Shown in pieces: positions 1 to 41,378 of a DNA stretch of 64,000 nt. The notes under the pieces are model-generated. The model saw only the letters and a program-made list of their open reading frames with translations, was not told the DNA's origin and did no database searches. The position numbers were made by a program, and so were the translations under genes. Each line of letters starts with the position of its first letter. Position 1 is the stretch's first letter. The DNA is from a virus: positions 122,600 to 186,599 of the IMG/VR virus record IMGVR_UViG_3300045988_058566, one strand, 5' to 3'.

Positions 1-62
1 CTAAGAACAACAACATTACTCTTTAAGTCACCGTCCTTTACATCATTAACTTTTTTTGCCAT
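1..62 (-). CDS. hypothetical protein, N-terminal fragment running off the window
   Basis: ATG at 62..60 (minus) reads MAKKVNDVKDGDLKSNVVVL to the edge; lies directly downstream of the capsid gene. Confidence 0.35.
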   Translation of the reverse strand, partial: MAKKVNDVKDGDLKSNVVVL

Positions 63-158
63 AATTCATTATAAATTTCTATGAATAGGTAGGAGAGCAC
101 CTCGTCTCCTACCGTATCTTAATATTATTAGATAATCTTTTTAAATCTATTAATTAAA

Positions 159-1580
159 TCAATATTCCTTAGCTTTAAGAATAAATGATTTATAAGGGTT
201 GAATACAGCAATACCTGCATATCCCCAGATTGTCATAAGACCACCTGCTACTGGTGAACTTACAACACCACTTTCACCTCCTGAGCGACCACCAACACCA
301 AGAACTTCATTGAAAATGTAATCCTTACCCTTCAATGAGAACATTTGAATAGGAGGTTGTGTAGATGTCTTACCTGTTGTTAAATCAATACACAAGAAAT
401 ATGGGTCTTGATACTCTCTAGACAATGTTCTATCAACCTTGAAGCTAATAGTATTACCACCCCACTCATATGCGTCGAATGTAGCACCTACTTTGATATA
501 CTTTCCTTCACCTTGCTTAGACCAAAGATAAGCTCCATCAGTCTTTCTAGTAGAAAGGTATTCACCAAGTACTCTCTGTACAATAGCCCAAGCTTTTTCA
601 TTACACATAAAGCAGAAATGATTACCTGTTGGCTTATCTGCTTTTGATACCATATCAGAAATTATTGTGTGGAATGTGCCAATTGTAATTCTGTTTGCAG
701 AATACTTACTTGCAAAACGCTCAATTTGAGGAATTGCACCATCACCAATAAAGATAGGTTGTCCTGTAGCTTTATCAGCTAATGTAGTCTTACCATCAAC
801 ACCTACAGTACCCTTAGCAAGCAAAATCATATTCTCTCTTGCATACAAGAAGTTCTCAATAAGATTCTTATTCATAGGGTCCAGCTTGTAAATCTTTTCA
901 GTAAGGCATCCTTGGTTCTCTCCCTTGCCAATCTTGATAAATGTATCTTCCATCAATGCATACTTAGCACTATATGTATCCTATACACGAATAGTACTCA
1001 TATAGTTACGCATCTTTTCTACATTACTCTAATACTTAACCCAACCAGTCTCGTGCAATTCTGGTTTAGCATTACCAATAAAATAGGTATAATCACCAAT
1101 ATGGGTACCATCAGTATCCAATACAGAAGAGTAATCATCATCAAGCAAGCGAACCATTACTGACCACATATTATCTGCCTTTCTAACACTGTCAGAAACA
1201 ACAAAACACTATTGACCAGTACTCTCGATCTTGAAGATTTCATGCAAACGATAATAATTCTCTGGGAAGATCATTTCAATCTCAGAACCATTTGCCCCAT
1301 CACCAACTGGTTCAGCTGCAAATGGAACACGTTTAATATAATTAGTTTCCACTTCCCACTCGAAGTAAGTAGAATCAATACTTTGATACTTACTTGGCTT
1401 AGAATCACCATAATAAACGTTTCGCAATGCCTCTGTCAAGAATGTAGCTGTCAATTCTGGATAGAGTCTTGAAACTACTCCGAGTCGGTGAGGTCTTTCA
1501 CCTAAAAACTTACTAAAGTCTTCGTAAGTTCTTGTATCTCCCATGGTTGCATGGTTTGTTACAAAATTTGCTACTAACAT
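159..1580 (-). CDS. putative major capsid protein (473 aa with TAG translated)
   Basis: Track fragments 159..956 and 1209..1580 share a frame. The gap has three in-frame TAG (981-983, 1029-1031, 1209-1211) and no TAA/TGA, checked codon by codon. The real stop is TGA at 159-161. Size and position after a scaffold-like gene fit a capsid protein; family not verifiable by eye. Confidence 0.6.
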
Positions 1581-1602
1581 AAATAAAAATTAAATTTAAG
1601 AA

Positions 1603-2637
1603 TTAATCCCAATCGTCTGAATCCCAAATAGATTCATCCTTTTTACTCGTAGTTGGCTTTGTAGGTTTAAATACGAACTTAGATTTGTTAAGAATGTCTC
1701 CTTTACCTGCACTATAACCACGAGTATATGCATCTTGTTGCTACTTCTATAATTCTGCAATTAATTCCTATTCATTAAGTAACCAAAATGCAGCTTTAGT
1801 TAAAAGCTTAGGATCTTGCAATGCCTTACCTAGGGCACTAGAGCCATCCTCATCTAAAGCTAACATAAATTCAGACAAATTGTCCTTATCTTGATTAGAT
1901 AATTGAATAGGTTGTCCTGCAAAACTATTAAAGTTATCAATCTAATTGTTAACCACATTAGCAAATGCCTAATATCTCTGCTGAGCAGCAGCCTATTGTT
2001 GATTTGCAATGTTTTGTTTTTGTTCTTCCTATAATCTATTATATTGTTGTCTTAATCCGTCTACTGTTTTCTTAAATAAAGTTTCATTAGCCTTAGCAGC
2101 TTCTAATGCAGCATCTAGTTCTTCATCTGTAATGTTATCGTTACCAACTTTATTTAAAATATCGAAAGCATATAAATCCTCATCAGACATAGCATCAAAC
2201 TAATTTGTATCCTATGGCTAATTAATCTATGGAGTAATAGTTTGCATATAATCTTGAACACTCATTCCACTATTTCTAATAGCATTAATAAGGTCAATTT
2301 CATCTTCTGCTAAGTCATTATTAGTTTCCTAATGCTCTCTCTAGTCTGCTAAGATATTTATCTACTCCTCTTTAGTTAGAGAATCCCAGGAGCGTTCTGT
2401 AACAGCACCACTCTCATCTTCAAATTTAATCTTGTCTGGGTTACTAATACCTCTAAGTTTTAGTACCTCAGTAGTTAAATCATCTTCCTAATCTCCTTCA
2501 CTTGGAGGAGTAGAATCAGTCTCCTAATTACCTGTTTTTTCTGGTTTTGGATCTGGTTCTTGCTTTTCTTGAGTAGGAGTTTCATCAAACTCATCTACAT
2601 CAAACATTGAGTCATCAAAATTACTTTCCATATTCAT
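1603..2637 (-). CDS. scaffolding-like acidic, Gln-rich coiled-coil protein (344 aa, TAG-containing)
   Basis: ATG 2637..2635 ([19 protein letters not shown]...) and TAA 1603-1605 are in frame. Many in-frame TAG, acidic ends (...WDSDDWD). Sits immediately upstream of the capsid gene. Confidence 0.55.
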
Positions 2638-4505
2638 TACTTCATTTTCATTATAAATATTAAAGAATAAGCATCAAGCTTATATTTATTGTCTTCTGTT
2701 TGTCCTGGGGTTGTTTCTCCAGGAGTTTCTGTAGAACCTACATATTTAGTTAATTCTACAGATTCTTCTTTAAGGGCTGTTCCTGCCTTTATAAATTTAT
2801 CAATTAAGTTAGGGGTTCCGTTAGTTCCGTCACAAATCTACCATTTATCAGGTATATTTTTAGTATTACTAAACATTATAATGGAACCTTTAGGTAAGAA
2901 ATTAGTATCACCTGCATTATCAACAGCTTTCTTAATTTTTTCATTAACTATTTCCATAGTTGGAAACTAATTATCTGCTATTGTCTCTGGTTTTATATCA
3001 GTAAAACTAGGTAATTGTCCAGAAAATTTAGCGCCACTTAATGAAATTCCAGTGACTTTAACATCATCACTATAAAATCCAAATTTATTACTAGTATCAT
3101 CAGATATTCCAAATTCAGATTCCTTATAAGTGCCCATAATAGTATGATAAACATATTTATTATTTACAGAGTCCCATTTACGTAATGCTAAAAACCCCTC
3201 GCCCTAAATAAATTGAGGAACTCTTGCCTGATATATTTTAAACTAAGTAGCTTTTACTAAATCTATCCCTAAATCCTAGTGTACTGGAATTACTGTGATA
3301 CTGTTATTACTTAAACTAACTATTTTTAATTCTTCAGGGTTAACAGAATGTTTAATTTTAGTGCCTATATCTATGTAATAACCATCTATACTAAAATAGG
3401 CAGATTTAATAGATTTATTAGAAGGGTAGGTATAATTACCTATCTCCTAATTAGAATAAGTCTAACTTTCTCCCTCTTCAAAATTAATAGTTAATTGACT
3501 TCCATCTGGAAAGGCTTTATCCAAAATAAAATATTTAGATTCTTCATCCTGTAAATCTGGAGTAAGAAGATAAATATTATAAGTAGTTTCTAAATCAGCA
3601 TCTAAATATCCTTCAACAAAAGTATTAGGATACTTTAATGTAAGTTCATAAGAAGTCTCTCCTGTCTCTTCATTCCTCTCTTTTTCAGATACCTAAGTTA
3701 CAATATTGTATTCTCCTAAAGTTGTATATTTAGTATAGTCCTTTTGGTTTTTTGGTAGTTCTGATTCTATATTTCTCCAATTAATACTATCGATATCTAG
3801 TATTGACTTATTCTACTCCTAATAAATAGAATATCCTGAAGAATTACGGTTATAATTAGAAGATTTAATAGTGTTTACAATTAAATCTAAATTGCATATA
3901 ATAGAATTATTATATAACTAGATATAAGAAATATTATTAATAGATAGATTTAATTGAGTTGAATTTATATTATTTTCTTTTATACTAATATTTCCTATTG
4001 TTAAATCATCAAATTTTCCGGATGATGGTAAATTAGATACTACCTAATATTCATTTATATTTCCGTCTTTAACTAAATAGAGTTTATTAGTATCTTTTAC
4101 ATAAATTAAACCATACTATATTTTTGAATTAGTAACATCTTCTAATGTGTCATAGAATAATCCTATATTAGTTAGAGCTGTTTCTTTCTACTCTGCAGAA
4201 ATATCCTATTCCGTTAAAAAAGAAACATAACTATTTACGGTATCTGCTAACTAAACAGTAACTCCCTCTATATTAACCCAGACGGTCTAATCTGAATTGA
4301 CTAAATAAATACCATTATTATTTATGTCATCCTTACTATCTACAACATAGATAAACTACTTAGCTTCAGAATTTATTTTCCCGTTTTTAATTAAATCTAT
4401 AAATTTGTTTCCCCACTGTAATTTAATTTCTCCATTACTTCTTAGTAATAGTGGGGAGGAAGAGGAACCTGCTTCCTAATAATTTTTACCAAAAAGTTGT
4501 GCCAT
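2637..4505 (-). CDS. fibre protein with C-terminal tail-collar-like motif (622 aa, TAG-containing)
   Basis: ATG 4505..4503 and TAA 2637-2639 are in frame, with a TAATG overlap onto the next gene. The 3' end was checked codon by codon. C-terminal ...[18 protein letters not shown](TAG)[16 protein letters not shown] resembles the phage tail-collar motif. Confidence 0.55.
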
Positions 4506-4912
4506 TATTTAATATTAAGGATTTGTCTTCTATTTCTATTGGAATAACTAACATGTACCCAAGAATAATTATACTCATTAATTAACTAATCAAAAGGGAG
4601 CTTTAACTATTTAATAAGTTCAAACAATTGTTTATTACTTTCTTTAGAATTAGATTTAGTATGAATATCTGCAGCCTATCCAAGTGTGTGCTAGCTAGTT
4701 CTGGCACCTCCAACTGCTTTATTTAATTCAGGACATCTATATCCACTTGACACAATAATTGGCTATCCATAAGCTTTTCTCAATGGATCTAAAATATTAT
4801 CTATTAGCTAATTAAGACAATTTTCTACTTCTTTAGTAGGTTTATTGTCAATTTTTCTTTTATTTGCAGTTTCACTCTTAGTTAACTCTGCAATACTAAA
4901 ATATTTTCCCAT
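4505..4912 (-). CDS. peptidase M15 family (D-Ala-D-Ala carboxypeptidase-like) cell-wall hydrolase, probable endolysin
   Basis: Translation ...VSSGYRCPELNKAVGGARTS(TAG)HTLG(TAG)AADIH matches the SGYR..LN..VGG...SQH..G.A.D zinc-peptidase signature. ATG 4912..4910, TAA 4505-4507, in frame (135 aa). Confidence 0.85.
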
Positions 4913-4977
4913 AGTATTTGTATATTTATTACTTTATGGTCTATATATATTTAATAGAAATATTGCCTCAAAACAAA

Positions 4978-5015
4978 AATAGAGGAACTCCTCAAAATTA
5001 AGAAATTCCTCTATT
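4978..5015 (-). terminator. rho-independent terminator-like hairpin
   Basis: 10-bp stem aatagaggaa/ttcctctatt, followed on the minus strand by a T-rich run; lies downstream of gene 5064..5420. Confidence 0.6.
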
Positions 5016-5063
5016 ACTACTTTTTAATTATTTAATTAGCTATACCATATATGGATTTATTAA

Positions 5064-5420
5064 CTATTCTGTAATATCTCCACTTAGAATAGCTGCATCT
5101 TCTGATTCCGGATTTATATGTAACAACTTACACAGATATATCTCTAGATGATTCTTTTCATGTGCTAATGTATTTGCAGCTTCATAAATAGAATCTGATT
5201 CTCCTACAAATATAACACTGTGATTAGTTTTGTCACAATTATAAATAAATCCAGAATTAATATAATTAGTCAGTCTATTTGTTAATTTATCATAAATTTT
5301 ATTAGGTAAATTATATTTACTAGCTATACAGTCTAAATATTCTAAATCGCGTTTATATTGTATTACATAAATATCAACTGACCAATTATATTTTTCTAAA
5401 CAAGCTTTGTAATGTATCAT
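5064..5420 (-). CDS. small protein with HExxH motif (putative zinc metallopeptidase-like)
   Basis: Intact ORF with no TAG; AHEKNH motif; ATG at 5420 forms an ATGA overlap with the upstream stop. Confidence 0.5.
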   Translation of the reverse strand: MIHYKACLEKYNWSVDIYVIQYKRDLEYLDCIASKYNLPNKIYDKLTNRLTNYINSGFIYNCDKTNHSVIFVGESDSIYEAANTLAHEKNHLEIYLCKLLHINPESEDAAILSGDITE

Positions 5421-5818: not shown

Positions 5819-5820
5819 AA

Positions 5821-6015
5821 TTAGAAATATCTATTATAGTCAGGGTCACGATACTCTTCTCTAGGGTATCTACGTCTTCCATACTTCTCATTGTAATCTT
5901 TAGACTACATCTCTTCAATACAGCGCATTACTTTTCCGCCATAATTGATCATTTTCTCTACATACTCAGAAAGATTGTCTAACTTTGTATCTTGTACTTC
6001 AATTATTGTTGCCAT
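5821..6015 (-). CDS. hypothetical protein (64 aa, TAG-containing)
   Basis: ATG 6015..6013 (MATIIEVQDTKLDNLSEYVEK...) and TAA 5821-5823 are in frame. Confidence 0.4.
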
Positions 6016-6485
6016 GATTTCATAAATTCTTTAAACATTTCTTTTAGAGAATTAACTTCCTCTCTTAAAGCTTTATTCTCTGCTTCCTATCTTTGTCTTT
6101 CCTAGATTTCAGGATTTAATTGCATAAGTATTTCATCACATCCTTTAATAATGTCTTTATGTAACTAAATACTATTAACTATATCTGTACTTCGCTATTT
6201 CATAGAACTAATTTCACTACTCATAGCTTCTTTATTACAAGATATAACTATATTATTACCAAAATCTGCTATCTCACTATTTGCTGGCAATTTCTAGAAA
6301 TTAGTCATAGTTCCATTTACGTCAGCAGTAATATCTAAAATCATCTCTGGATTATACATCCCAGTATTACCATACTTAGGAACAGGAGGTGTTATGTTAG
6401 ACACCTTACCTAATTCCAATGATGGTACATTATCTTTATGTAATATAAATAGTTGATTACCGTTACGTAAATTAGAAAATGCCAT
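6003..6485 (-). CDS. hypothetical protein with C-terminal coiled coil (160 aa, TAG-containing)
   Basis: Track ORF 6294..6485 continues through TAG at 6294, 6195, 6165, 6102 and 6087 to TAA 6003-6005. Every codon was checked; no in-frame TAA/TGA. Confidence 0.6.
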
Positions 6486-6489
6486 AATA

Positions 6490-6813: not shown

Positions 6814-6827
6814 AGATACCTCCTTTC

Positions 6828-8225: not shown

Positions 8226-8633
8226 TCATCTATAATCTAATTTAGTAACTTTTTTATAAGCTATAACATATCCTATAATAAATATACCAGTTATTATTAA
8301 ATAAATACAGAGTAATTGCTTATCTGTACATGGGATACCTATATAAGTATCATAAGTTGCTATTAAATTACTTAGAAAGACATAGTATATTGGAAGTCTA
8401 TGTAACTCGCAAAATTTAAACGCAAATGAAGCTAAATATATAAATATTAAAGATAATATAGATATTCCTCCAATTAGTCTTAAAATATCCCCATTTATAT
8501 CATAATAGGATAAGATGGTATGTATAATATCTACTAAAGCTAATAAATAAGGCAGATATTTAAGAGAAATTATTAGCAACTTATAAGTTATTTTACTTAC
8601 ACTTTTTTCCTTTTCCCTTGCCGGTTTTGCCAC
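8226..8633 (-). CDS. multi-pass membrane protein
   Basis: Intact ORF, several hydrophobic helices; GTG start is uncertain. Confidence 0.45.
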   Translation of the reverse strand: MAKPAREKEKSVSKITYKLLIISLKYLPYLLALVDIIHTILSYYDINGDILRLIGGISILSLIFIYLASFAFKFCELHRLPIYYVFLSNLIATYDTYIGIPCTDKQLLCIYLIITGIFIIGYVIAYKKVTKLDYR

Positions 8634-8680
8634 CTTCTGACAAACCAGATGGAGCTGAATTAGGCTTTTTTCTTCCCATA

Positions 8681-8980
8681 TTACTTAGAAATTGTTTGGT
8701 TAGCGAGATAATCTTTAATTAATTGAGTTGCAGTCTGGGTATAATCAATCACTGCATCCAAATTTTCTGGAAGTGCTGTAATATTAATATTAACCATACC
8801 ATCAGTTGGAACATTATAATTATAATAACCAACTTGATTATTCAACTCTCCATCTTTACTTACATTAAAATTAATAGAAGTGCTGCCATTAACTTCCTGA
8901 GTAGCTGAACCTGAAATAGTCCAACCATTAGAAGTTGTATCACTAAGATTAAATGTCTGATTCTGTTTTGTTATTTCCAT
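8681..8980 (-). CDS. hypothetical protein (TAG-free)
   Basis: Intact 99-aa ORF; TAATG junction with the upstream gene. Confidence 0.5.
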   Translation of the reverse strand: MEITKQNQTFNLSDTTSNGWTISGSATQEVNGSTSINFNVSKDGELNNQVGYYNYNVPTDGMVNINITALPENLDAVIDYTQTATQLIKDYLANQTISK

Positions 8981-9432
8981 TACTTAATAAATAATTCATA
9001 AAAAGCTTCCATAAGGTCAGCGGCTTTTACTTTCTGACCATTAATCTCATACTTACCATCAGAATTTACGTCAAGAATATCACTATATTCATCTTCTGTA
9101 AATGTGTCTTCAGGTGCATCTTTAATATCTTCATTACCTTTTTGCATAAGATATTCTTGATACTCTGAATTAGCTTTACTATTAAGTTCATTAAACTTAG
9201 TTTCCTCTTCAGGTGTGCGCTCCGTCTTATTAGCTAAATCTCTCAATTCATCTGAAACAATTTGCTTACTAAACTCTTGGGTATCCTCATCAAACTGTTT
9301 CTTAATCTTATTATAAGACATTCTAATTCTCATAATCTTTACTTTCAACTCCTTAGGGAGTTCTTTGCCATTATTGGCTAATAAAATCTTTGTAATAAGA
9401 TTCTGTTTTGTCAAAACATCATTTAAAGTCAT
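8980..9432 (-). CDS. hypothetical acidic protein (TAG-free)
   Basis: Intact 150-aa ORF. Confidence 0.5.
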   Translation of the reverse strand: MTLNDVLTKQNLITKILLANNGKELPKELKVKIMRIRMSYNKIKKQFDEDTQEFSKQIVSDELRDLANKTERTPEEETKFNELNSKANSEYQEYLMQKGNEDIKDAPEDTFTEDEYSDILDVNSDGKYEINGQKVKAADLMEAFYELFIK

Positions 9433-9500: not shown

Positions 9501-12500
9501 TTAATTTTCAAAACTCCATAGAGCAAAGTAGAAAGAACTAGGATTTAGAGTCTCATCATCAGAAGTCCACACATTGATAGCTAAGTAACCACTATAGTTA
9601 CCAGTCATGCCAACCACTTTAACAACACCTCGTGTATCCTATCCTCCAGGACATCCTGTTGCCTATAAGGACATTTTTTCACGATTGTATTTACTTTCTA
9701 AAATATCGGTAAACCATACACGATATTTGCCATTACTATCAAGTAATGCAACTTGAGCATTTCTATTACAAGATATTTGCTACGTTCTCCTACCTGATGC
9801 ATAATCTGGACCATCATATACATATCCACAGGCTATACATATAGGCTATTTATAATATATTGCATCTTTAGCCTAAAGAGTTATAGATGTCATTCGCGCA
9901 TTACCATTAACATCCAGTTTATAAGAAGGAGTACTTTTACCGATTCCTACATTACCCCCACCATTACATAAAGTTATGTTTCCACCATTAAAATAATTTA
10001 AATGCATACTAGAACCACATTCTATTACACTAGAATTAAAACTGCCATCGGACTTACTAGCAATATGAATTATTCCAAATTGAGCAGCTCCAGATGTTTT
10101 TATATTCCATTTATCAGTACCTGAATGAGATGCTATATCTTGAGTATAAACCCATCCATTATTATCAGCACGTCCTATATACAGATTACCGTCACCGTGA
10201 CTTATCCTAGCATTAGCATTCATAGTACCTCCTGCTAAAGGAAGATATGAGTGAGTATGGGATTTGCTAGAATATAAAGTATCAGTTTTTGCTTTTATAT
10301 ACCCCCATAAATGAACAGCTTTTCTTTTATATGGAACATTAACTGCATTAGGGTCTGCAAATCCATTATTAGTAGCATAGGAAGTAATAAGCATAGTACC
10401 ATCTGTTATGGTAGAAGTTGCTTCACTAACCTAACTAATAAAAGTAGAAGTAGTAACTGTCTTAGCAGCAGAACCATCGTATGCTACTCCAAATACATTA
10501 AGTGAATATGGGTTCTTTAAGGATGAGGGTCTTCCACTAACATTACTCCAAGCAACAGAACCCGCGCTACTAGCATATGCTACCCTAAAATTACTAGGAT
10601 TATATACATAATAAGAATGCCGACTATTTCCTCCCCATAGCCAAGTTGGCTAACCGGACTAACCAGACCAATTAAAGGTAGCAACTCCACTATCAGCTCT
10701 TAATAATTGACTTTCAGTACCTCCATTCTTTATAAAACTTGCAGCTTTAAGAGGAGCATATCCTTGATTTCCATTTCCAAAATTATAAACATCAATAGAA
10801 GCTGACTTTGATCTATCATTTATAGGTACATAGTTAAACCATATACTTGCCTTAAATCCAGCATTAACTATATTAAATTCATTACCTCCTACTATTTTAT
10901 CTGTTATAGAAGTCCAAGTGTGGGTATGTGAGGAGGGAGTAAAGGTACTTGGCTTATTAGTCACATTATTCCAAGAAGGAGGGTTTTCTTCTGTATAAAA
11001 TTTCTTCCAGCCCTTATCTGTACCACCTTCTAATCTTCTATAAATTGGAGAACCCCAAAATGGGAAGGCTATAGTCTAAGAATAATATGTACTACCATTA
11101 CCATGATTACATATAATATAGGAAGCCCATCCTGAGCGTCCCATATAAGAAGCATCTGTTTGAAATGCAGTTATTTCCTAATTACCTGTACCAGTATATC
11201 TTAAAGCTCTTGCGTTGTCTGCGCCACCCCCGTTAGCTGGTAAGCTAGTAGGAATATTTTTAGTTAGCGCTACTGTACCTGAATCTAATGGAAATCTAAT
11301 TTGATATGTAGTTGTGTTATTCCCAGTATTATAGTTAGAATCCGTAATATAAGATAATACTGGAACATTATTCCAACTACTTCCTGCAGTATATTCTCCA
11401 AAATCCCAAGAACCATTTGTAGTTTTTAATGACCATAAAGCATGATAACCAGATACAGAAGTTTCTCTTAATAAAGCTCCATCTCTTCCATTAACCCATG
11501 CCTAAGAAGAGCCTCCCCTAATTATTTGTCCTGTAGCCCTAATATTTCCATTTACATCTAACCTTTGTGTAGGGGAACTAGTTCCAATGCCTACCTTACC
11601 TCCCCCAACACACATAGTAACATTACCAGTGTTTCGATAATTTAAATGTAATCCACCATTAGCTCCATTATTAATCTCATCACTATTCTACAAATAAATA
11701 TTACCCATTCTAATAGAATTACTAGAATAAATCTAATTGCCACAATAGAATGACTTACCTCCATAGGTTCTAATCCAAGTAGAGTCAGTCATATTAATAC
11801 CGCCGCCATAAGTCTAACTATACCATCCAGTACTCCCGGTACTTCTAAACCAATTAGAAGTATAAGCTGTACTAAATGTAGGAGAAGTTCCTGAACTAGA
11901 CGAAGCTGATACTTTAATATTAGCCCAGTAATAATTTACTGGATCTTTAAGTTGAGAGGTAAAAGCTACGGTCTGCCATGATCCCCAAGTATTATCATTA
12001 TATGATTTATTCCTATAATAAATACCTCCGGTCTTACCAGCTCCAAACCATAACTGTGGCTGCCAATGATTAGCATTATAACTTAGTATTTCCATCATTT
12101 CTCCATGTCCTGAAGGTCCTCCTGCAGAATTATATATAGTATAGAAATTTACCTTATTGGTTTGAGCAGAGGATGTACCATTTTTGATAGTATTCCATAA
12201 TCCTTTATTAGAAGGAGAACTATCATCCCTACAATAAGTAAGAGTAACATAACTGGCTTTAGTAGCACTTCCTGCAGTTGTTGCATAAGAGACACTTAAT
12301 GAACTCTCCGCTTTATGACTACCTCCTCCTAAAAGAACATAAGCATTAGACGAACCCCCCTTTATAAATCCATTAGAAGCTCTCACATATCCTGAAGAAT
12401 AAATATCCCCGCCTACTTTAAGTTTATAATCAGGATTCACACCATTAGCCCAGCCAGCTCCTACTGCTAAACAATTATTTTTAATCTATACTCCGTTGAT

Positions 12501-28488: not shown

Positions 28489-28489
28489 T

Positions 28490-29417: not shown

Positions 29418-30307
29418 TACTTAACTATTGAAATTAATTGAGGTTCACTCCATATATTCTTATTGTCGTCTAAAACATAATTATTATTATTCTAGGAAGC
29501 AGAAATCATCCATAGATAACCAGTGAACTCCTATTCGTTAGTATCTGTCCACTAGTTACCTGGATTTATTGCAGTTTTAGTTAATTGAGGTTTTTTAAAA
29601 GTACTAGTTACTGTAAATTTAGTAACAAGTCTACTATCATAAGCCCATTTAGAATATAATGCAACTTTAAATAAACTCCAGGCACCACTTACTCTCTATC
29701 GTACTGCCATAAATCCATAAGGATTAGACGCAGTTATTTCTGATGGATATTTACTCCAATTATTTTTACCTGCTTCACTAGCTTTAATTATTTCATCTAT
29801 AGAAGCATCTGTATCATCTACATTCTATAGTTCCCCATCTACTTCTACTGCTTTCTATGGATATATTACCTTAGGCTACTAAGAATTATCTTTTACCATA
29901 TATAGAGTCTAACTAATCTCAGCAATATCTGCAGTTACAATTTCATAAAATTTCTAACCATCTTTAAGATTCTATCCTTCAAAATACACAATAGTCCTTT
30001 TCCAGGTATAAGGAGTCTTTACAGAAGGTAATACAAAGTTTTCACCCCACTAATTAGTTTCAGGCTAATTTTCTAACTCCTTCACTTTAGCAACATCTGC
30101 TGTATTTGTAGCTAAATAATCTATTTTAAACTTTAAAGATTTAGCTACTTCATCAGCTCCCTATTTTTCTGAGATCTATCTAGCAAGGTCTGCTAAATAT
30201 ATATCAAGTGTAGTGTTTTTAGCTAGAACTGTAACTGCTTTATCTGCTGTCTCTGGATAAATCTAATCACCGGTTCCAGAGTATACTTTTTCACAACTGA
30301 TTGCCAT
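29417..30307 (-). CDS. hypothetical virion protein (296 aa, TAG-containing)
   Basis: ATG 30307..30305 and TAA 29417-29419 are in frame; TAATG overlaps at both ends. Confidence 0.45.
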
Positions 30308-32478
30308 TATGATTGTCTAATTTTATCATTATAAGGATTACCATCGTTTAACTAAGCTAATTCAACCTTAGTTCTCTAATCCTCTATATCTAATTGTCTA
30401 TCTTTATAAGTTCTATCTGTTTGAGCCTTATACCAATTAACTTGATATTCTAATTGAATCTTCTGCTAATCAAGCTGCATTCTTTGTTCATTAAGAGACT
30501 CTGCTTTCTATTGAGCTTTCTATAATTCTTGCTAAGCCTATTGTAGCTACTAACTGGTTTCTTCTAACTTCTACTACAGCTACTATAACTAATTGTTTTC
30601 AGCTTTCTATTTTTCTATAGCTTTCTTAACAGTATATTTAAGTTCAGTTAAACTCTTAGCAGTAAGAGCTTCAAATATAATATCGGCACTAACTAATCCA
30701 GACTTAATTAAATCAGGCAATGTAGATTTAATTGTCTGCATATCCTACATAATCTCAGTACTAGATATTACATGTATATCATAGTCTGTAACTGTAAAAT
30801 ATTCAGGAAGTGCCGTAAATATTTTCTAGTACTTATCTCCCAGAGTAATAGTACCAGTTAGTCCTTTCTTATAAACTATTTTAGCCTAATTGAGGCTATC
30901 TAATAAGACTTCTCGCACAACTAAATCCATTTGCTAATAGATAGGTTTAGTTACAGTATAAGAATTAGTTACTCCCTATTTAACATTAGTTACAGCATCT
31001 CTCTATTCAATGCCATTAAGTCTTTCTCTAAATACACCTGTAATAGATGATACAGTAGATTCAATAGATTGTATAGCCAAATCAATTGCTTGTATTACCT
31101 ATGCTGGTAAAGATTCATCATAGCCATTAAATATAGTATTTAAAGGAGCCTATCCATCTTCCATTCTTCCCTCTTGAGAAGAATCAATCAACATTTCTCC
31201 TTGTTTCTTATAAGCTCTCCATTTCTTTACCCTAGCTCCAAAATCTGGACCTAATACTTTAGGAATCATAGAAATGTCAATAATACTACCCTTAACACCA
31301 CTATTTGCTACGATAGCATCTCTATAATAGTGTAGGAGATCATAACGATCCTACAAATGGGCACATTTTAAGATTAAACTATAAGGCTAACGTGCTCTAT
31401 TTAAAAAATAGACACCATTTACTGATAATCCACAATAATTAGGATTATCATGACTTCTAATTACCTATTTATCAATTCCCCTAAGAATATAATATTCATC
31501 ACCGATTCTAATTGTATTATATCTCTACATAATAAATTTATCATCAGTTTCTATCCATTCTACTTCGTATACTGGAATTAGATTATATCTATGGGAATCA
31601 TCTTCAGGATAACCTGGGAGTAAATCTTGTTCTTCATCATCGTCACTGGCTTCATCTATATCTACAACTGGACCAAAGGCTCTTCTATATCTAGCTGTAT
31701 CATCGTCTGTCCAGTTCTATTTAAAATTACGTAAGTCTTCTTTACTTAATTCATTTCCATATTTAGCTAATATCTAACTTTTAGAAAGCCATTGTCTCAC
31801 AACTGACCTATAAGATTTTTTAACATAAGGAGATTCAGGATTTCTATCTACAAAAGTATTTAAAGGATTTAATACTTCTATTTCAATATTAGTTTTACTA
31901 AATGATGGCTTTACTCTGTAAAAACAATAACCTGTAACTAATAAGTCTATAAATAATTGTCTAAGTTTAGTTACAAAATCAATTTCTTCAGACTACATAA
32001 TGTATTGAAGAATATTCTAAGCAGCAATTTCATATTGAGAAACAAATTGCTAATCCTACTCTTCAATTATTTTATCTAACTACTATTTAATAGATTTATC
32101 AGTAATATCCTAGTTATTAGCAAATTTAAGTAAGGAATTATTTAAATGAGTTTTTAAAAATCCTATTATTTGTGTCTATATTAATAGCTATTTTTCTCTA
32201 TCCATATTACTGATAGTCCCTGCATCTTTACAGGATATTTTTGGTAATATAGGAGTTCCTAGAAATTCACCAACTAAAGCATCTACATGTTTTCTTAGTA
32301 AAGGTGTAAATTCAACAGAAGTAGGACTTCCTATACCAAAATTTTCTTCTAAATAACGAAACTATTCCTTATCTCTTTTTCCATTATAATAATTATAAGC
32401 TTTCTATAGCTTAGTTTTATCATATACAAGTTCAGAAATAGTTTCGTTAGTCTTATCTATAAGCTCTTTGTCTGTCAT
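30307..32478 (-). CDS. putative portal protein (723 aa, TAG-dense)
   Basis: ATG 32478..32476 and TAA 30307-30309 are in frame. No track ORF because TAG is so frequent. Follows the large terminase; size fits a portal. The C-terminal Q-rich coil has TAG interleaved with CAA/CAG (30547-30609, checked). Confidence 0.55.
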
Positions 32479-32716
32479 AACATAGTTTAGGTTCTGGAGG
32501 TTGTATTTTAATTGCTTTAAAATACTTTACTCTATGTAATTTACTTCTTCTTAATTCCTCTTTTATAAAATCTACAAATTTATCATCAGGTAAATCTGCC
32601 ATTAATACAAAGGGGTTCTCGGCATGGTCTAGATTAAGAGAAACTTTATATCCTATAGGGTCTAAATCTTCAATACGAATATCTCCTATAAAGTCTATCT
32701 AAAACTGTGTTCTCAT
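32453..32716 (-). CDS. possible small overlapping gene (87 aa)
   Basis: ATG 32716..32714 and TAA 32453-32455 are in frame; overlaps the terminase 3' end and the portal 5' end. Confidence 0.3.
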
Positions 32717-35030
32717 ATAATCTAGGATCACTTGTTTCAATTCGGTATGGGTCATTATTTTCCTCCTATTTAATTACTATTTGATTTGGTTGTTTCTTTG
32801 GAATAACCCCAAATTCTCTATAACCTTTGTCATTTATATAATATCCGTAGTCCTAAAATTCTTCAACTTCTTTGTCAACTTTTGTAGGTTGTCTTCCTGA
32901 TAATTCCTAATCTGCAAGTTCAACCATTCCAAGTGCAGCTATAATATCAAATTTTGTTTTATTCTCATCATTATAACCATTTAACTACACCAACATGTCT
33001 TCAAACCAGATATTATGTCCATAGTCTTCTACATAATCAGCTATAAGGTCTGTTTGTTGCTCTATAATAGTTTTAGTTGCAGGGGTGCCGTACTATTTAG
33101 TAGTACCATGTTTGATATCCGTTAAAGTCGCTCTAGGTCTCTTCATAAAGTATTGTAGACATTTATTTTCTCTAGCCCAAGTAATCATACCTACACGGGT
33201 AGCCTCTATATTAATTCTACAATTATAATATCTGCACATACACATAGCTATCTTATAAGCTTCTCTAATATTTTGAGGTCTGTCTTTATACATAGCTACA
33301 TATTGTGGTTCATTAAGACCGAAGGCTCTACGTTTAATTACAATACAAAAATCAGAAGGGTCTCTAGTTTCTTTAGAAGTCTAAGCAGCACCAATATCAA
33401 TACCATCAATACCCGCTACATATAAATCATTCATTTCTGTATATACAGGAGCTTCAAAATCAATCCCCTATTCTTCAGCTTCTTTCTTCTACTTCTCAAT
33501 CTGTTCTTTATATAAATCAGACCATACTGGATGCTCTAATATCTAAACTTTACCAGAATTAAGAAGCCATCTAAATCCATTTATATTTTCTAAAGAATGC
33601 TTATTAGATTTGTAAGTATAATCAATAGTTCCCACTTGTGGTCTAGGTCCAATTTTATGAAGACGTATTTTAGCTAACTAATCTGCTATCTTCATTTTAT
33701 TAAATTTATTCTAACCTTCAAGAGTAAATGCTTCTTCTGCATTCCAGCAACGCTCAGCACACTTTTTAAGGTAGTCTTCAGGAACAGCTAACAGATTATT
33801 TCTTTCTTCTTGTAATATCTTCTTATATTCTGTCTAATTACAAACTCCTCTAGAATCCATGTATTCAGGATTCAAAGATTGCAGAAAATAAGGAAGAAAG
33901 AATCCACTCTCTATAGTAGTTCCGTCTTGTGTCCATTTATGTCTAAATGGTAGAATCTTAAAAGCCTTAGGATTATAATAAATCTTTTTTAATCCTTCAA
34001 GAGGAGGACCGAAATCACCTCCAGTACCACCAAATAACATAATACCTCTAGGAACACCTTGTACTTCACATAACTCTTGTCCTTGTACTACAGCAGTGGT
34101 TAAATCAGGCCACGAACCAGCCTCATCATAAATAAGAAGATCAACACGGTCACCACGAATATTAGAAGGCTTGCTTCCATTAATTCCTATTACAACAGAA
34201 CGCCATCCAAAGTCTGTGAACTGACCATCTATTTTAACTTGGTATCCTGATTTCTTTTCTAGGGCTTTATCTGTTAATCTAGGCTTAAAAAATCCATCAG
34301 CATTCGTATTAATAAATGTGAGAGCATGGTCTAACTTACTAAAGGTACCATTTAAATAGGTATCTTTAAAGCAGGTAATCATAGTTCTACTTCTCTTTAT
34401 AGTAGTGTATAGTCTAGCTGCAAGAGAAGCATTTATCTCACTGAAACCAATTGAACGGGCTTTCATTAAAGCAGCATTTTTATGTAGTACTCTACACATC
34501 TATAAATAATGAAAGAACATATATTGAGAAGCAAAGAATACCGGAAAACTTTCATTAGTACCTTCACCTGATGCTTTATCCATATCTACTACTGGTAACT
34601 AATAAAAATTTAAGAAGAAATAGTTATCTCCAGTAATAGTATATCCATGTGAGGTCATACCATATTTACATCTAGTATATTGTTCTTTCCAAAATGCATC
34701 CCATCTTTTACTTCTAGGTAAATAAGAACAATATCTTCCAGTTCTTAGAAATGTTTCTCTAACTTCGGTAAACCATGAGGGGTCAAAATCTAAACCATGA
34801 GTTTCATCTATAGGTCTATAACCAGTTAATTCATAAGATAAAGTAGGATCAAAACATTCTATTTTCATATCCTTAGTAATATCCCAATATGTCTTATCAT
34901 TAGAACGTTCAATTCTATATTCATCAACTAATTTCTTAGCTTCTTTAGTGTCTTCTTCCTACTATTTCTTTTTTACTTCATCTACAATTAACTAGATTTC
35001 ATCAGGTAATACTTTCTTCTTTCTAGGCAT
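32670..35030 (-). CDS. terL: terminase large subunit (786 aa, TAG-containing)
   Basis: Fragments 33093, 33834 and 34599 and start ATG 35030 share a frame. Gaps 33294-33836 and 34500-34601 were checked and contain only TAG. Motifs MKARSIGFS (Walker A-like), DLLIYDEAG (Walker B) and VAGIDGID (nuclease Asp). Stop TGA 32670-32672. Confidence 0.8.
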
Positions 35031-35035
35031 ATTAA

Positions 35036-35596: not shown

Positions 35597-35623
35597 AAAT
35601 CATTAACATTCAACATCAGTATT

Positions 35624-37042: not shown

Positions 37043-37044
37043 AA

Positions 37045-37230
37045 TTATACAAGTATTAAATCCTTAGTGTTGAATACTGCTTCCTACATTAAACCTGAAT
37101 CAGTAAACCATCTGCATCTCAATCCTTTCATTTCATCTTTAAATATTGCTTGCTCTTTTCTAATAACAAGCATAGCCGGACAATGCATTTTGTCACGCTA
37201 ACGTAACTAAACTACATCTCCCGGCTGCAT
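37045..37230 (-). CDS. DUF2158/YodC-like small protein (61 aa, TAG-containing)
   Basis: MQPGDVV(TAG)LR(TAG)RDKMHCPAMLV...LRCRWFTDSG pattern; ATG 37230..37228 and TAA 37045-37047 are in frame. Confidence 0.4.
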
Positions 37231-37240
37231 GTAAACTTTA

Positions 37241-37846
37241 TTACTTGTTTCCATTATCTTTAATTTGATTCTTTCTTTCTGTTAATTTCTCATTAACTAT
37301 TGCCATAATTCGTGATTCATTAACTACTACAAATCCTTGCTTGAAAAATGGAACAGTAGCTTCACTAGCTTTAGTAAAGAATACTACATCACCTTCTTTC
37401 AAGAACTCACACTTGAATCCAGTTTCAATTACAGTACCAACACGAATAAACTGTTCCAGTTCGTGAATTTGACCATCTTCTTCACTCTTATATTGAGGAG
37501 TAAATCCGCCCAAGTCTGTAATAATTCCACTCTCTACTGTTACCTTTTGGAAAGGATTCTCCTCAAAAGGTTTAATCAATGCATAAGAACCCATTGGTAA
37601 TATCTCTAAACCATTGATGTCCTTTGAGATTTCTTTAGCATAGTCTTCAAGTGCTTTATTGTGTTTTTCAAATTTATCTACATATTCATCTACTTTAGTA
37701 TTAAATTTAGACTTCTTCTCATTAGCTAAAATAACGTCTGCTCTTTGTCCATTAACTACAATAGGAGTTCCTGTACTTTCCATACCAATAAGTGATTGAG
37801 CTACTTTCTCTTTTCCATTTAATTCACTTCTAAAATCCATAGTCAT
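37241..37846 (-). CDS. protein with C-terminal GroES-like co-chaperonin domain (TAG-free)
   Basis: Intact ORF; ...ILPMGSYALIKP...GTVIETG...LKEGDVVFF...IMAIVNE resembles the GroES / T4 gp31-type fold signature. Confidence 0.45.
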   Translation of the reverse strand: MTMDFRSELNGKEKVAQSLIGMESTGTPIVVNGQRADVILANEKKSKFNTKVDEYVDKFEKHNKALEDYAKEISKDINGLEILPMGSYALIKPFEENPFQKVTVESGIITDLGGFTPQYKSEEDGQIHELEQFIRVGTVIETGFKCEFLKEGDVVFFTKASEATVPFFKQGFVVVNESRIMAIVNEKLTERKNQIKDNGNK

Positions 37847-37868
37847 TTACATTAATTTATGGCAATAA

Positions 37869-38114
37869 TTACCATTTACCTTGTTCACAAAATTCATCTT
37901 CAATTCTAGTTTTATTATCTAATACGCATCCACATAAATCACATAAGTCACCGAAGTTAGTATCTAATTTATGGTCACATCTATGACATATACCTAATCT
38001 TGTAATAGCTAAATCTTGATGTTTATTCTTAATATTATAATATATGCTTTTTAATATAGTTAATGGCTTAGTTAAAATACCATGTAACCATTTAATTAAT
38101 ATGTTTAATTTCAT
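37869..38114 (-). CDS. Cys-rich zinc-binding-like small protein
   Basis: Intact ORF; CHRCDH...CDLCGC; ATGA overlap with the upstream gene. Confidence 0.45.
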   Translation of the reverse strand: MKLNILIKWLHGILTKPLTILKSIYYNIKNKHQDLAITRLGICHRCDHKLDTNFGDLCDLCGCVLDNKTRIEDEFCEQGKW

Positions 38115-38332
38115 TCTGCTTCCCATTTATTACAAGGACAATGTGAGTTCTTATTATTAATCTTCCATTTTAGGTGGCATCCGCACCCCTTTAAGTATCC
38201 TTTCTTAGGTGTTGTACTTACATCATTATTTTCAGGATTTAAATATAAATGTGCATTACAAATCTCATTTTCTTGGTCACAAATAGGACAAGCTCTACAT
38301 ATTTTAGTACGTTTAGTTATATATTCTTCCAT
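38111..38332 (-). CDS. Cys-rich zinc-binding-like small protein
   Basis: Intact ORF; CRACPICD...GCGCH...CPC. Confidence 0.45.
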   Translation of the reverse strand: MEEYITKRTKICRACPICDQENEICNAHLYLNPENNDVSTTPKKGYLKGCGCHLKWKINNKNSHCPCNKWEAE

Positions 38333-38423
38333 ATATTAATGTGTATATTAGTTCTTAGTTAATTCCATTATAGTGCTATAAATTAAATAGGCTATTAGTA
38401 ATAATGCTATACATAGTATCATA

Positions 38424-39338
38424 TTAATATTCAATTCGTTTATTCTTTAATCTACGTTCTTGTAGAAGATGTTCCTTTTCATAATAAGATAACATACGTT
38501 CTACTTCTTTTCTAAGATAAGGTAGATGATAAACAGTCATATTGTCATTGTGATCAAAATGTACTAATACTAAATCTTCTATACTAAAGTCAGGATTATA
38601 TGATTCAATTATATAAGCATAAGTACTAAGCTGAAGACAATAATGATAATAATTACAATCATCCAGATTATTTAGAGGAAACTTCATCTTAACAGAACTT
38701 CTTACTTTAGAATCAAAATAACTCTTGGTATCAATCTTCTTATTTGTTTTCCAGTCTCCAATTACGATGGAATTGCCTTTTTTAACTAATAAATCAATCT
38801 GACCTGCAATATGTAATTTACCAGATGGAGAATCCCAATGAATTAAATACTCAGGGTATACTGCATTCTCCAAATCTAGAGAAGTTCTATCTTTTTGGCA
38901 CTCAAATTTACCTCCTATTTGATATTTATCTAGAGTAATATTCTTTTTCTTAGTATAAAAGGAATTCTCTAATCCTGCATGTATTTTAGTGCCTCTTTCA
39001 CAAGACCTTCTATTTTCCTCATCCCAAGAGTCTAATATTTCTTGCTGTGCTTTATTAAAATCTAGCTCAGTAATATTATGTAACTCTAACAGAACAGGGT
39101 CAAATTTCTTAGTATTTAAAAGAGACTTCTTCTCAATCTTAAATTCATCAGCAGGTAACAATTTCTCTAAGGCTTTATATGCTGACCAAAATTCTTTATC
39201 AAATGGCTGACCAAATTGTTCAATCATAGTAGTTACAGAAGTGAACTTGATAGATGAGTCGTTAACATCCCAGTAACGATGTGCTTCTTCATTAAAAGCT
39301 ACTGTTCCGTTTTGTTTATCAATACTTAAATTTTCCAT
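38424..39338 (-). CDS. PD-(D/E)XK nuclease (RecB/Cas4/lambda-exo-like exonuclease)
   Basis: Intact 304-aa ORF with GQIDLL...IGDWKT (D...DxK) and QLSTYAYI (QxxxY) motifs. Confidence 0.7.
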   Translation of the reverse strand: MENLSIDKQNGTVAFNEEAHRYWDVNDSSIKFTSVTTMIEQFGQPFDKEFWSAYKALEKLLPADEFKIEKKSLLNTKKFDPVLLELHNITELDFNKAQQEILDSWDEENRRSCERGTKIHAGLENSFYTKKKNITLDKYQIGGKFECQKDRTSLDLENAVYPEYLIHWDSPSGKLHIAGQIDLLVKKGNSIVIGDWKTNKKIDTKSYFDSKVRSSVKMKFPLNNLDDCNYYHYCLQLSTYAYIIESYNPDFSIEDLVLVHFDHNDNMTVYHLPYLRKEVERMLSYYEKEHLLQERRLKNKRIEY

Positions 39339-39461
39339 ATAACATTAACATTTTACATTTATTTTATATTTATCTAAACTAATTTTTAACTTTTCAATAA
39401 TAATATATAATTAGGTGTATAACAAATTAATTAGTAATATAAACTCTTAAATTTAATTAAA

Positions 39462-40184
39462 ATGGAAGATTTAGAAATATTTGGTATTCCTTATCTAGCT
39501 AAAGGTTCCGGAATACACATTAAAAAGGAAAATAGAGGGAAATTTACTGAAACTAAAAAGAGAACAGGTAAAACTACTGAAGAATTAACTCACAGTAAAA
39601 ATCCTCTAACTAGAAAGAGAGCCATATTTGCTTAGAATGCAAAGAAATGGAAACATGAAGATGGTGGCGAAGTACATAAGCCAAATGGTCATAGATCAAT
39701 ATTAGATAATGGATGGTTTAAAACAAAGGATTTAAAGAAGAATCATCCTCTTACATATTAGTAGGGTGGACCTTTTTAGATTAGTAATTCATAGCCTCAA
39801 GTATTACAAAGATATATTTCCTTAGTTAATTAGGGTATTCCATAGCAGGCTGCTTTTGACACTTCACACTTATCTATGATAGAAGATGGCAGACCTGGAA
39901 AATATTATTCATTCGGAAGAAGGGCATCTAACTTAGGTGGATGGACTAAAAATGCAACTGATAGTCTAACTAATGGTAGATATAGAAATTTATAGAATGC
40001 CTAGAACTTTGGATAGTTTAAGCAGGGATTAAAATAGAAGAACTATAATACAAGACCTGCTTTCTATAATACAGAAATGAATAGAGGAAGAAATAGGGAT
40101 AAATAGATTATTAATTAGTGGAATAAACAATAGGGTTTGAATCCAATCGCTCAAATATATAATTAGAATATTAACTAGGTATGA
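39462..40184 (+). CDS. hypothetical protein (240 aa, TAG-containing, plus strand)
   Basis: ATG 39462; codon-by-codon read MEDLEIFGIPYLAKGSGIHIKKENRGKFTE...RAIFA(TAG)NAKKWKHEDGG... with many in-frame TAG; ends at TGA 40182-40184. Confidence 0.55.
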
Positions 40185-40603
40185 GAAAAGCATAGTTATT
40201 AAAATATTAGCAAGGGGGTAAAAATAAATGGCATCTTGATAATCCTTATTTAGATGCAGCTGTAGAATTAACTCCACTGGGCGATGTTAGAGATATTTAT
40301 GAAGGTATGCAATCAGGTAATTACTAGCAATCTGTAGGAGGTGTAATAGGATTAGGAGGATCTATAATTGGAATTTCTGTCTTACCTAAATTAATAAAAG
40401 GCTATAAAGCATATAAAAAACTAAGTAAAGCTAATAAGATAGTTAGAACTAGTCCATTTAGAATAGTTAGAAATTAGGCTTATAATGAAGGAAGGGCTGC
40501 TTATAATACATTACACAGAATACCTTATTATAAAATTGCTGGTTCTGCGGTGGCTAAAGGAATAGATGGAATAAATGACCTAAAATCGATATTTAGTAAA
40601 TGA
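40181..40603 (+). CDS. hypothetical protein (140 aa, TAG-containing)
   Basis: ATGA overlap with the previous gene; in-frame TAG; stop TGA 40601-40603. Confidence 0.5.
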
Positions 40604-40701
40604 AAGATATAAATATACAATTGAATGAACTACAAGAATTTTTAGATTTTGTAGATGAAAGAGATAAGTAGTTGTGGAATAAATATTTAAGAACTAAATA
40701 A
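40600..40701 (+). CDS. small hypothetical protein (33 aa, one TAG)
   Basis: ATGA overlap; MKDINIQLNELQEFLDFVDERDK(TAG)LWNKYLRTK; stop TAA. Confidence 0.35.
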
Positions 40702-40710
40702 AGAATAATT

Positions 40711-41172
40711 ATGGGTAATATAAGAGATTTAATTAACAGTACTAGAGATTTTTTATTTTCTAATAGAACCCCCATTTAGAATATAACAGCATTAGCTATG
40801 GCTTATTAGAAATATAATCCTAATAGTCAGTATAATAAATAGAAAGGTAAATTCGGAGGTAGTAAATCTTTTAATGGTGGAGGTTCAGGCGGTTACTGGA
40901 CTTCCGTAAGGCATTCTGTTAAAAAATTTAATAACTTTAATGATGCCTTCGATGATGCAGTAGATAGAAAAGCTTCTACATTTACCTTTGGTAATAAATT
41001 ATATAATACCAAGAAAGAAGCAAATCCAATTAGAGAATTTAATAACAGAACTGTAGGTTCTTACAGAGATACTGTTATGGTTAATGATAGAGGTAAAAAT
41101 TATGGCGTAGATTTTGGTCCTATAAAAGGTCCTGCTAGTTTAATACCCTTAGTTTATGATACTGATAAATGA
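40711..41172 (+). CDS. hypothetical protein (153 aa, three in-frame TAG)
   Basis: Every codon read: MGNIRDLINSTRDFLFSNRTPI(TAG)NITALAMAY(TAG)KYNPNSQYNK(TAG)KGKFGG...; stop TGA 41170-41172. Confidence 0.6.
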
Positions 41173-41378
41173 AATAGTTTTTAATTAAATTAATAACAGC
41201 ACATACTGGAGTAAGTAGTAAAAGAGTGTGTGGAATATTAGGATGGATAGTTAGTTTAATAGTACTTATATATTGTAGTATTGTAACTAAACAAGCACCA
41301 GATATGATAGATACAGTTTTATATTGTTGTATGGGATTATTAGGTATAGATAGTATAACTAGTATATGGAGAAAATAA
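41169..41378 (+). CDS. small membrane protein, holin-like (69 aa, one TAG)
   Basis: ATGA overlap; MK(TAG)FLIKLITAHTGVSSKRVCGILGWIVSLIVLIYCSIV...; two hydrophobic segments; last gene of the cassette. Confidence 0.45.

Follow-up and report, generated by a model that had tools for sequence, protein, structure and literature searches.

The 64,000 nucleotides analysed here, referred to throughout as the window, are positions 122,600 to 186,599 of the IMG/VR virus record IMGVR_UViG_3300045988_058566. The window carries a long leftward array of late genes, a short rightward cassette, an amber-suppressor tRNA with anticodon CUA (tRNA-CUA) and a rightward region of small early genes. Coordinates of all these features are given in Table 1. 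Our subject is the use of TAG as a sense codon in the late genes, which had been proposed in a preliminary description made from the letters of the sequence without database searches. We confirm that this use of TAG is real and far beyond chance. We then consider which amino acid TAG stands for, where in the window its meaning changes, and what purpose the change may serve.

Reading frames and genes of the late block

The gene map of the late block was built from stop to stop, with TAA and TGA as the sole stop codons. Read in this way, the minus strand between 159 and 37254 and the plus strand between 39462 and 41378 resolve into 37 genes comprising 12,721 codons. Together these genes occupy 59.6% of the window, in agreement with the preliminary estimate that a standard-code gene caller would shatter about 60% of it. 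The coding frames contain 344 TAG codons and not a single TAA or TGA, while the two other frames, over the same 12,721 codons, contain 579 and 1,729 of them. TAG itself is not depleted in the coding frame (344, against 460 and 351 in the two other frames). The genes end in TAA (26 genes) or TGA (11 genes), and the overlapping junctions that had been described between neighbouring genes were verified six times as ATGA and five times as TAATG. Recounting the individual stretches on which the proposal had been based reproduced it in each case. The capsid gene has three TAG and no TAA or TGA at 957-1211, the gene at 6003-6485 has five TAG, and the terminase has seven at 33294-33836 and two at 34500-34601. 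In the giant gene at 9501-15860, which the preliminary description called a fibre gene, the stretches 12441-13379, 13584-14108 and 14931-15143 hold six, five and one TAG, respectively, again with no TAA or TGA. The plus-strand cassette had been said to behave likewise, and TAG occurs in each of its four genes.

The choice of code has a pronounced effect on open reading frames (ORFs). Those of at least 150 amino acids cover 20.7% of positions 1-41378 in the standard code, 23.7% if TGA is taken as sense, and 87.4% if TAG is taken as sense. A sense TAG also lengthens the longest ORF from about 343-344 to 2,127-2,128 codons and brings the total length of window ORFs of 100 or more amino acids from 9,310 to 20,664 amino acids; treating TGA as sense adds little. 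Coding density over 1-41400 is 96.5% in the TAG-sense reading, and the same reading changes almost nothing in the ORF coverage of 41379-64000. Counted with the codons for glutamine, TAG is the commonest of the three in the 37 genes (TAG 344, CAA 222, CAG 64, so that TAG makes up 55%), and glutamine then accounts for 4.9% of late-gene codons. The base that follows a sense TAG does not differ from that after CAA or CAG, and sense TAG has no position bias along genes. With the tRNA present, TAG therefore acts as an ordinary codon. The preliminary description held that TAG is sense throughout the late modules. This is true of the block as a whole, but four genes within it (8226-8684, 8681-8980, 8980-9432 and 17866-18309) are free of TAG.

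Family searches of the late proteins were made with TAG masked as X. The match of the terminase large subunit (TerL) to its PHROG family runs unbroken from residue 88 to residue 711 and crosses the TAG codons within that stretch. TerL residues 451 and 682 are among the TAG positions. The portal protein has a single significant PDB sequence match, to gp20 of Bacteroides phage crAss001 (7QOG, 2.4e-16). The major head protein uses TAG sparingly (23% of its glutamine codons) and has no PDB sequence match; in tblastn it matched only crAss-like sequences annotated as major head protein, and these weakly (21-24% identity, E 1e-4 to 1e-6). No Pfam match was obtained for the giant protein at 18766-25140. 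Family matches that cross TAG, together with the gain in ORF coverage, show that the TAG-sense proteins are both longer and more homologous than their standard-code counterparts.

A recoded lysis module had also been proposed, and this part of the proposal stands in modified form. The endolysin on the minus strand aligns with PDB 1LBU and is of the zinc D-Ala-D-Ala carboxypeptidase type, and TAG provides 75% of its glutamine codons. The first TAG is codon 35, and two of the six lie within the SxHxxGxAxD metal-binding (zinc) motif, which reads SQHTLGQAAD when TAG is taken as glutamine. With TAG both before and inside the catalytic motif, the standard code could yield no active enzyme. For the plus-strand cassette, on the other hand, we dropped the lysis label. 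Pfam and PHROGs gave almost nothing for it, with no lysis-family match for the cassette and no informative match for genes 2-4, and the endolysin is found elsewhere. Residues 14-70 of the first cassette gene (39462-40184, plus strand) match the virion cargo protein gp45 of crAss001 (PDB 7QOG chain M, 8.8e-6), and for this reason the cassette looks virion-associated and not lytic. The second gene encodes a single hydrophobic segment long enough to span a membrane, and the fourth a strongly hydrophobic stretch with a weak match to a PHROG membrane-protein family. Elsewhere in the late array, the HExxH motif of the 5028-5420 product suggests a small metallopeptidase. Recoding extends to virion, packaging and lysis genes alike.

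Table 1. Genes, tRNAs and code-related regions of the window
Feature	Position	Strand	Size and TAG content	Basis
TAG-recoded late gene array	159-37254	-	33 genes; TAG the majority glutamine codon	Gene map; all stops TAA or TGA
Major head protein	159-1580	-	473 amino acids, 3 TAG	phrog_11589, 1.4e-7
Tail fibre or collar-like protein	2637-4505	-	622 amino acids, 19 TAG	phrog_5795 and phrog_1800, ~5e-6
Endolysin, peptidase M15 or D-Ala-D-Ala carboxypeptidase type	4505-4912	-	135 amino acids, 6 TAG	phrog_894, 2.2e-39
Late protein	5028-5420	-	130 amino acids	HExxH motif (AHEKNH); weak match to a PHROG of unknown function
TAG-depleted island (8226-8684, 8681-8980, 8980-9432)	8226-9432	-	3 genes; 0 TAG against 17 CAA/CAG	Codon counts
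Giant protein	9501-15860	-	2,119 amino acids, 28 TAG	TAG-sense gene map
Giant protein	18766-25140	-	2,124 amino acids, 66 TAG	TAG-sense gene map
Tail fibre family match	25388-25996			Family search
Portal protein	30307-32478	-	723 amino acids, 40 TAG	phrog_6547, 3.7e-37
Terminase large subunit (TerL)	32670-35030	-	786 amino acids, 17 TAG	phrog_6681, 4e-64
First TAG-containing gene of the array	37045-37254	-	69 amino acids, 3 TAG	Gene map
Standard-code-compatible genes: GroES-like, two small genes, PD-(D/E)XK exonuclease	37241-39338	-	TAG-free	Family search, codon counts
TAG-recoded cassette	39462-41378	+	4 genes with 16, 4, 3 and 1 TAG	Gene map
Small genes flanking the suppressor tRNA (41462-42269, 42415-42813)	41462-42813	-	TAG-free	Gene map, codon counts
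Amber-suppressor tRNA, anticodon CUA	42296-42367	-	72 nucleotides	ARAGORN; Rfam tRNA, 63.5 bits
Early standard-code region of small orphan genes	43300-63888	+	13 of 43 listed ORFs end in TAG	ORF list
tRNA cluster	51819-55926	+	13-14 tRNAs	ARAGORN, Rfam
Phage tRNA-Gln(UUG)	53486-53557	+		ARAGORN/Rfam; in the tRNA cluster, on the strand opposite the suppressor

Glutamine as the amino acid inserted at TAG

We compared the window with 50 IMG/VR loci around TerL, which show 46-97% identity and come from genomes of about 177-193 kb. In each of the 50 loci, down to 46% identity, TerL has between 7 and 31 in-frame TAG, while TAA and TGA are absent. The TAG codons of the window TerL align with TAG, CAA or CAG in these relatives. 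Over all genes that the loci cover, relatives of at least 90% identity have kept a window TAG 1,750 times and changed it 153 times. The changes are to CAG (92), CAA (39) and other codons (22), so that the two glutamine codons account for 131 of the 153. TAG never becomes TAT, TAC, TGG, TTG or TAA in this set. We also compared likelihoods over about 2,500 aligned positions, taking for each of the 20 amino acids its substitution profile in these alignments. Glutamine was the maximum-likelihood assignment in each of the three divergence bins, with a margin of more than 300 log units. An exhaustive profile search yielded 76 distant full-length TerL homologues, which align across the TAG columns and do not end at them. 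Two of these columns are conserved as glutamine, in 62 and 45 of the 76 sequences, and glutamine is again the best assignment, with glutamate 13 log units behind. The comparative evidence thus identifies glutamine as the residue read at TAG in the late genes.

A TerL with glutamine at the TAG positions is already present in a public protein collection (P0001) and is end-to-end identical to ours. It is encoded on a scaffold from the human gut (ENA ERZ28573039 scaffold_8) with 99.996% identity to the window over the 22.4 kb compared (22670-45031), and the gene calls of that record (786, 723, 296, 259, 440, 371, 202, 73 and 2,124 amino acids) are the same as those made here. Public gene calls are annotation and not evidence, and the glutamine assignment was therefore tested independently of them.

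Two other accounts of the TAG codons can be weighed at this point. A standard-code caller reads the late region as a series of fragments, and if it were right the TAGs would be real stops in genes that are fragmented or pseudogenised, or else products of assembly or sequencing error. We give this essentially no credence. The frames are broken by TAG and never by TAA or TGA, the same pattern recurs in dozens of independent assemblies as well as in the distant relatives, and TAG positions in relatives are either kept or exchanged for glutamine codons. Real stops would moreover leave TerL, the portal and the major head protein dead, and all three are essential. The relatives' TerL, the substitution pattern and the frame counts have already refuted this account. 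Alternatively, TAG could be sense but specify another amino acid, such as glutamate, lysine or pyrrolysine. ARAGORN labels tRNA-CUA as 'Pyl', the sequence of this tRNA by itself is no proof of a glutamine identity, and the distant TerL homologues, taken alone, leave glutamate just behind glutamine. However, the 'Pyl' label reflects an anticodon rule only, and the changes in close relatives go overwhelmingly to CAG or CAA, including 39 two-step changes to CAA. Glutamine leads every other residue in the large alignments, a second suppressor found in a sister clade derives from tRNA-Gln(CUG), as described below, and proteomics of related phages gave glutamine (PMC9523058). A different amino acid is highly improbable on this evidence.

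The suppressor tRNA, the code boundary and TAG as a stop codon

The suppressor tRNA lies at a distance from the other 13-14 phage tRNAs (51.8-55.9 kb, plus strand) and is placed upstream of the leftward array. Its position, 6-9 kb upstream of TerL, is kept in relatives of 72-97% TerL identity. No second suppressor tRNA was found in the window, including among the tRNAs missed by ARAGORN, and no HDV-like, theta or other ribozyme was found adjoining tRNA-CUA. We gave no weight to the likeness of tRNA-CUA to the phage tRNA-Gln(UUG), since their 67% identity falls within the range of 53-72% seen between tRNA-CUA and the other phage tRNAs. The small gene at 42415-42813 (minus strand), upstream of tRNA-CUA, is TAG-free in the window, and its orthologues in relatives of less than 90% identity carry 71 TAG against 87 CAA or CAG. 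The TAG-free surroundings of tRNA-CUA are therefore not universal.

In a sister clade, at 73% TerL identity, a second tRNA-CUA is encoded on the opposite strand (L012:1597-1667, L013:1119-1189, L022:964-1035, L032 and L038, minus). Its orthologue in a further relative is a tRNA-Gln(CUG) (L044:116-186, minus), to which it is near-identical apart from a one-base change in the anticodon and a few other substitutions. The second suppressor of the sister clade looks to have been born by a single anticodon mutation of tRNA-Gln(CUG), the route taken by supE.

In the early region TAG has a different role. The 43 standard-code ORFs at 43-64 kb end in TAA (25), TAG (13) or TGA (5), and when nested and overlapping ORFs are set aside TAG still ends 10 of 38. 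In close relatives, terminal TAG gives way to TAA at 50725 (1 of 14), 51211 (6 of 14) and 56333 (4 of 10), and an early terminal TAG is never replaced by CAA or CAG. This exchange is the opposite of that in the late genes and marks TAG as a working terminator here. Backup TAA or TGA codons lie a median of 3.5 codons beyond early TAG stops and 7.5 codons beyond TAA or TGA stops, a difference that is not significant (one-sided p=0.053). Searches of the TAG-free and early genes against Pfam and PHROGs gave almost no matches.

The two uses of TAG meet within the leftward array. The first TAG-containing gene of the array overlaps the TAG-free gene upstream of it by 14 nucleotides, and this overlap (37254/37241) is the code boundary. 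Across the clade, orthologues of the genes at 37241-39338 contain 7 TAG against 1,000 CAA or CAG, whereas orthologues downstream of the boundary have about 45-50% TAG. The boundary is therefore sharp, conserved, and located inside an uninterrupted co-directional array.

Deeper in the recoded block, the TAG depletion of the island at 8226-9432 is also conserved. Its orthologues in 43-64 loci contain 30 TAG against 682 CAA or CAG, while flanking genes have roughly 20-60% TAG. One island product (8983-9432, 150 amino acids) retains 89% identity in a lineage in which TerL identity has fallen to 46%. An AlphaFold model predicts this protein to be all-helical with good confidence (predicted local distance difference test, pLDDT, 90.8). 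The model has no PDB fold match, and the island proteins have no family match.

Two codes in a crAss-like phage

The relationships of TerL, portal and major head protein support the assignment of this phage to the crAss-like phages. The best annotated tblastn matches of TerL are all to crAss-like phages (25-28% identity, E 1e-33 to 1e-46), and a megablast search of window positions 30-37 kb against GenBank phages gave no match. Its most likely place is in the Zeta group described by Yutin et al. (2021), judging from likeness in TerL, portal and major head protein, genome size, gut origin, tRNAs and perhaps the intron-like TerL insertions of relatives. Genomes of the Zeta group measure 145-192 kb and come from the human gut (PMC7886860), as do the samples of the relatives used here. 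The TerL, portal and major head protein genes of the window are intact and uninterrupted. The TerL genes of five relatives (L030, L044, L047, L049 and L051) contain insertions of 0.3-1.2 kb with in-frame TAA or TGA, which for this reason look like introns; no Rfam intron family matched them. Among the hallmarks of crAss-like phages, a giant multidomain RNA polymerase with the DxDxD motif, IHF, the conserved genes of the structural block and a primase or helicase were not recognised in the 64-kb window, and about two thirds of the genome lie outside it.

Recoding of TAG to glutamine in the late genes of crAss-like phages is already known, and our finding is correct but not novel. Yutin et al. 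2021 described crAss-like phages, including Zeta, that reassign TAG to glutamine or TGA to tryptophan in late genes and carry suppressor tRNAs (PMC7886860). Borges et al. 2021 generalised the pattern and proposed that recoding regulates late and lysis genes (bioRxiv 10.1101/2021.08.26.457843), and Peters et al. 2022 confirmed TAG-to-glutamine recoding in crAss-like phages by metaproteomics (PMC9523058). One of the phages in the latter study is a Zeta phage according to a review (PMC10136315).

We consider it very likely that the window belongs to a crAss-like gut phage of about 185-192 kb that uses two codes, with TAG decoded as glutamine in late genes by its own tRNA-CUA and early genes kept in the standard code. 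The switch between them may act as a gate on the late genes. The early genes, which run rightward at 43-64 kb on the plus strand, and the small leftward blocks at 37241-39338 and 41462-42813 fit the standard code of the host, TAG being either absent from them or a terminator. TAG is the commonest glutamine codon of the late genes, namely those for head, portal, terminase, tail fibres, the two giant proteins, cargo-like proteins and endolysin. Decoding would fall to tRNA-CUA, which is located among the TAG-free genes that head the leftward array. In amber suppression by supE, glutaminyl-tRNA synthetase recognises U35. The host enzyme would charge tRNA-CUA as it does the supE tRNA of E. coli, and tRNA-CUA would then build up during infection and outcompete release factor 1. 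Full-length virion and lysis proteins would become possible only afterwards, and the code switch would in this way be a translational gate on the late genes. These steps draw on knowledge of amber suppression and on a published model (bioRxiv 10.1101/2021.08.26.457843).

Several observations weigh against this picture. The timing of expression is read from gene order only, and scans for sigma-70 promoters, terminators and a Bacteroides-type promoter pattern all performed at chance level. TAG-free and TAG-rich genes overlap at 37241/37254, so that any gating there would have to be translational, which is plausible. The amino-acid identity of tRNA-CUA is unreadable from its sequence. No release factor, glutaminyl-tRNA synthetase, other synthetase or other code-change gene was recognised in the 64-kb window, with about 125 kb of the genome outside it. 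Lastly, a gate does not explain the TAG-depleted island. The island and the boundary could mark proteins made before suppression or independently of it, perhaps including parts of the switch, with TAG content serving as a translational timer on one transcription unit, but this extension is doubtful. As switch parts, the island proteins might for example antagonise release factor 1 or help in the maturation or charging of tRNA.

The same decoding could also serve another purpose, with no timer for late genes or lysis. It might be a device against the host or its defences, acting by reading through the TAG stops of host genes or by protecting against competing phages, or it might be the result of neutral drift at low guanine-plus-cytosine (GC) content. 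An anti-defence role was proposed by Yutin et al. (PMC7886860), and the GC content of the window is 31.5%. Sense TAG behaves like any other codon, without special context or position bias, and in one co-directional array TAG-free genes overlap TAG-rich ones. Against these points, a gating role fits the division between early and late genes, the conservation of the boundary and the location of tRNA-CUA amid TAG-free genes. It also fits the heavy use of TAG in the endolysin, a feature that Borges et al. found for lysis genes. We regard another purpose as rather unlikely, although it deserves to be kept in view. A more radical proposal is that TAG is already a sense codon in the host, so that the phage simply matches its host and no switch takes place during infection. 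We know of no bacterium in which TAG encodes glutamine. TAG ends 13 of the 43 early ORFs (10 of 38 without nested or overlapping ORFs) and exchanges there with TAA in relatives, the TAG-free blocks and the sharp boundary are conserved, and the phage encodes its own tRNA-CUA. Phages of recoded hosts do exist, for example with code 4/25 (bioRxiv 10.1101/2021.08.26.457843); crAss-like phages, however, infect Bacteroidota, which use the standard code (PMC7886860). A recoded host is accordingly a very remote prospect, and a two-code phage, with a proposed gate on its late genes, is the reading that we prefer.

Compared with the Zeta and other TAG-to-glutamine crAss-like phages (PMC7886860), this phage is alike in gut origin, genome size (185-192 kb in its relatives), recoding limited to late genes, a suppressor tRNA, many tRNAs, a distantly related TerL, portal and major head protein and perhaps, in its relatives, intron-like TerL insertions, and we see no essential difference. 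It shares with the code 15 gut phages of Borges et al. and Peters et al. the recoding of structural and lysis genes, standard-compatible early genes, a suppressor tRNA, low GC content and a strongly recoded endolysin. It differs from them in that no 'code change module' of release factor and aminoacyl-tRNA synthetase was seen in the window and in that TAG still ends about a quarter of early genes, where it is not merely avoided. The supE suppressor of E. coli, a tRNA-Gln(CUA) derived from tRNA-Gln(CUG), likewise inserts glutamine at amber codons, and the sister clade shows the same change from CUG to CUA. The suppressor of the window is a different and older tRNA with no evident descent from tRNA-Gln, and it serves hundreds of sense codons, whereas supE gives leaky suppression. 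Phages recoded from TGA to tryptophan (Agate, Jade and some Zeta crAss-like phages) follow the same logic, in which a stop codon becomes sense in late genes by means of a suppressor tRNA. The codon and amino acid are different, and reading TGA as sense gives no gain here.

The choice of code decides the annotation of the window, since about 60% of it, with all of the head, portal, terminase, fibre and endolysin genes, is lost to a standard-code caller. To the field it offers a further well-resolved case of a strategy that is already documented. It adds that TAG is both terminator and glutamine codon in one genome, with substitution evidence behind each use. It also adds a sharp code boundary conserved across the clade, a suppressor tRNA isolated among TAG-free genes, and a conserved TAG-depleted island in the recoded block that could point to proteins needed before the switch. 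These details are refinements and not a new kind of system.

Several minor features complete the map. GC skew changes sign at about 38000-42000, being negative over 1-40 kb and mostly positive over 40-64 kb, at the place where gene orientation also switches. A hairpin with a 13-bp stem is present at 41408-41439, between convergent genes. Several tRNAs of the plus-strand cluster have insertions, at 52662-52752 (91 nucleotides, Trp), 52769-52856 (88 nucleotides, anticodon UUU by eye) and 55106-55210 (105 nucleotides), and the anticodon loop of the tRNA at 55561-55633 is unusual, being read by ARAGORN as AUA. Four tandem paralogous genes at 56921-58682 (plus strand) encode proteins of 143-147 amino acids with 31-44% mutual identity, all of which begin with MCW; the one that was scanned (56921-57355) has no family match. 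Two RAGATH-1 hammerhead ribozymes are found at 46600-46705 and 47637-47721 (both plus strand), with scores of 68.1 and 62.0 bits against a gathering score of 56.3, and sit in intergenic gaps between small early genes.

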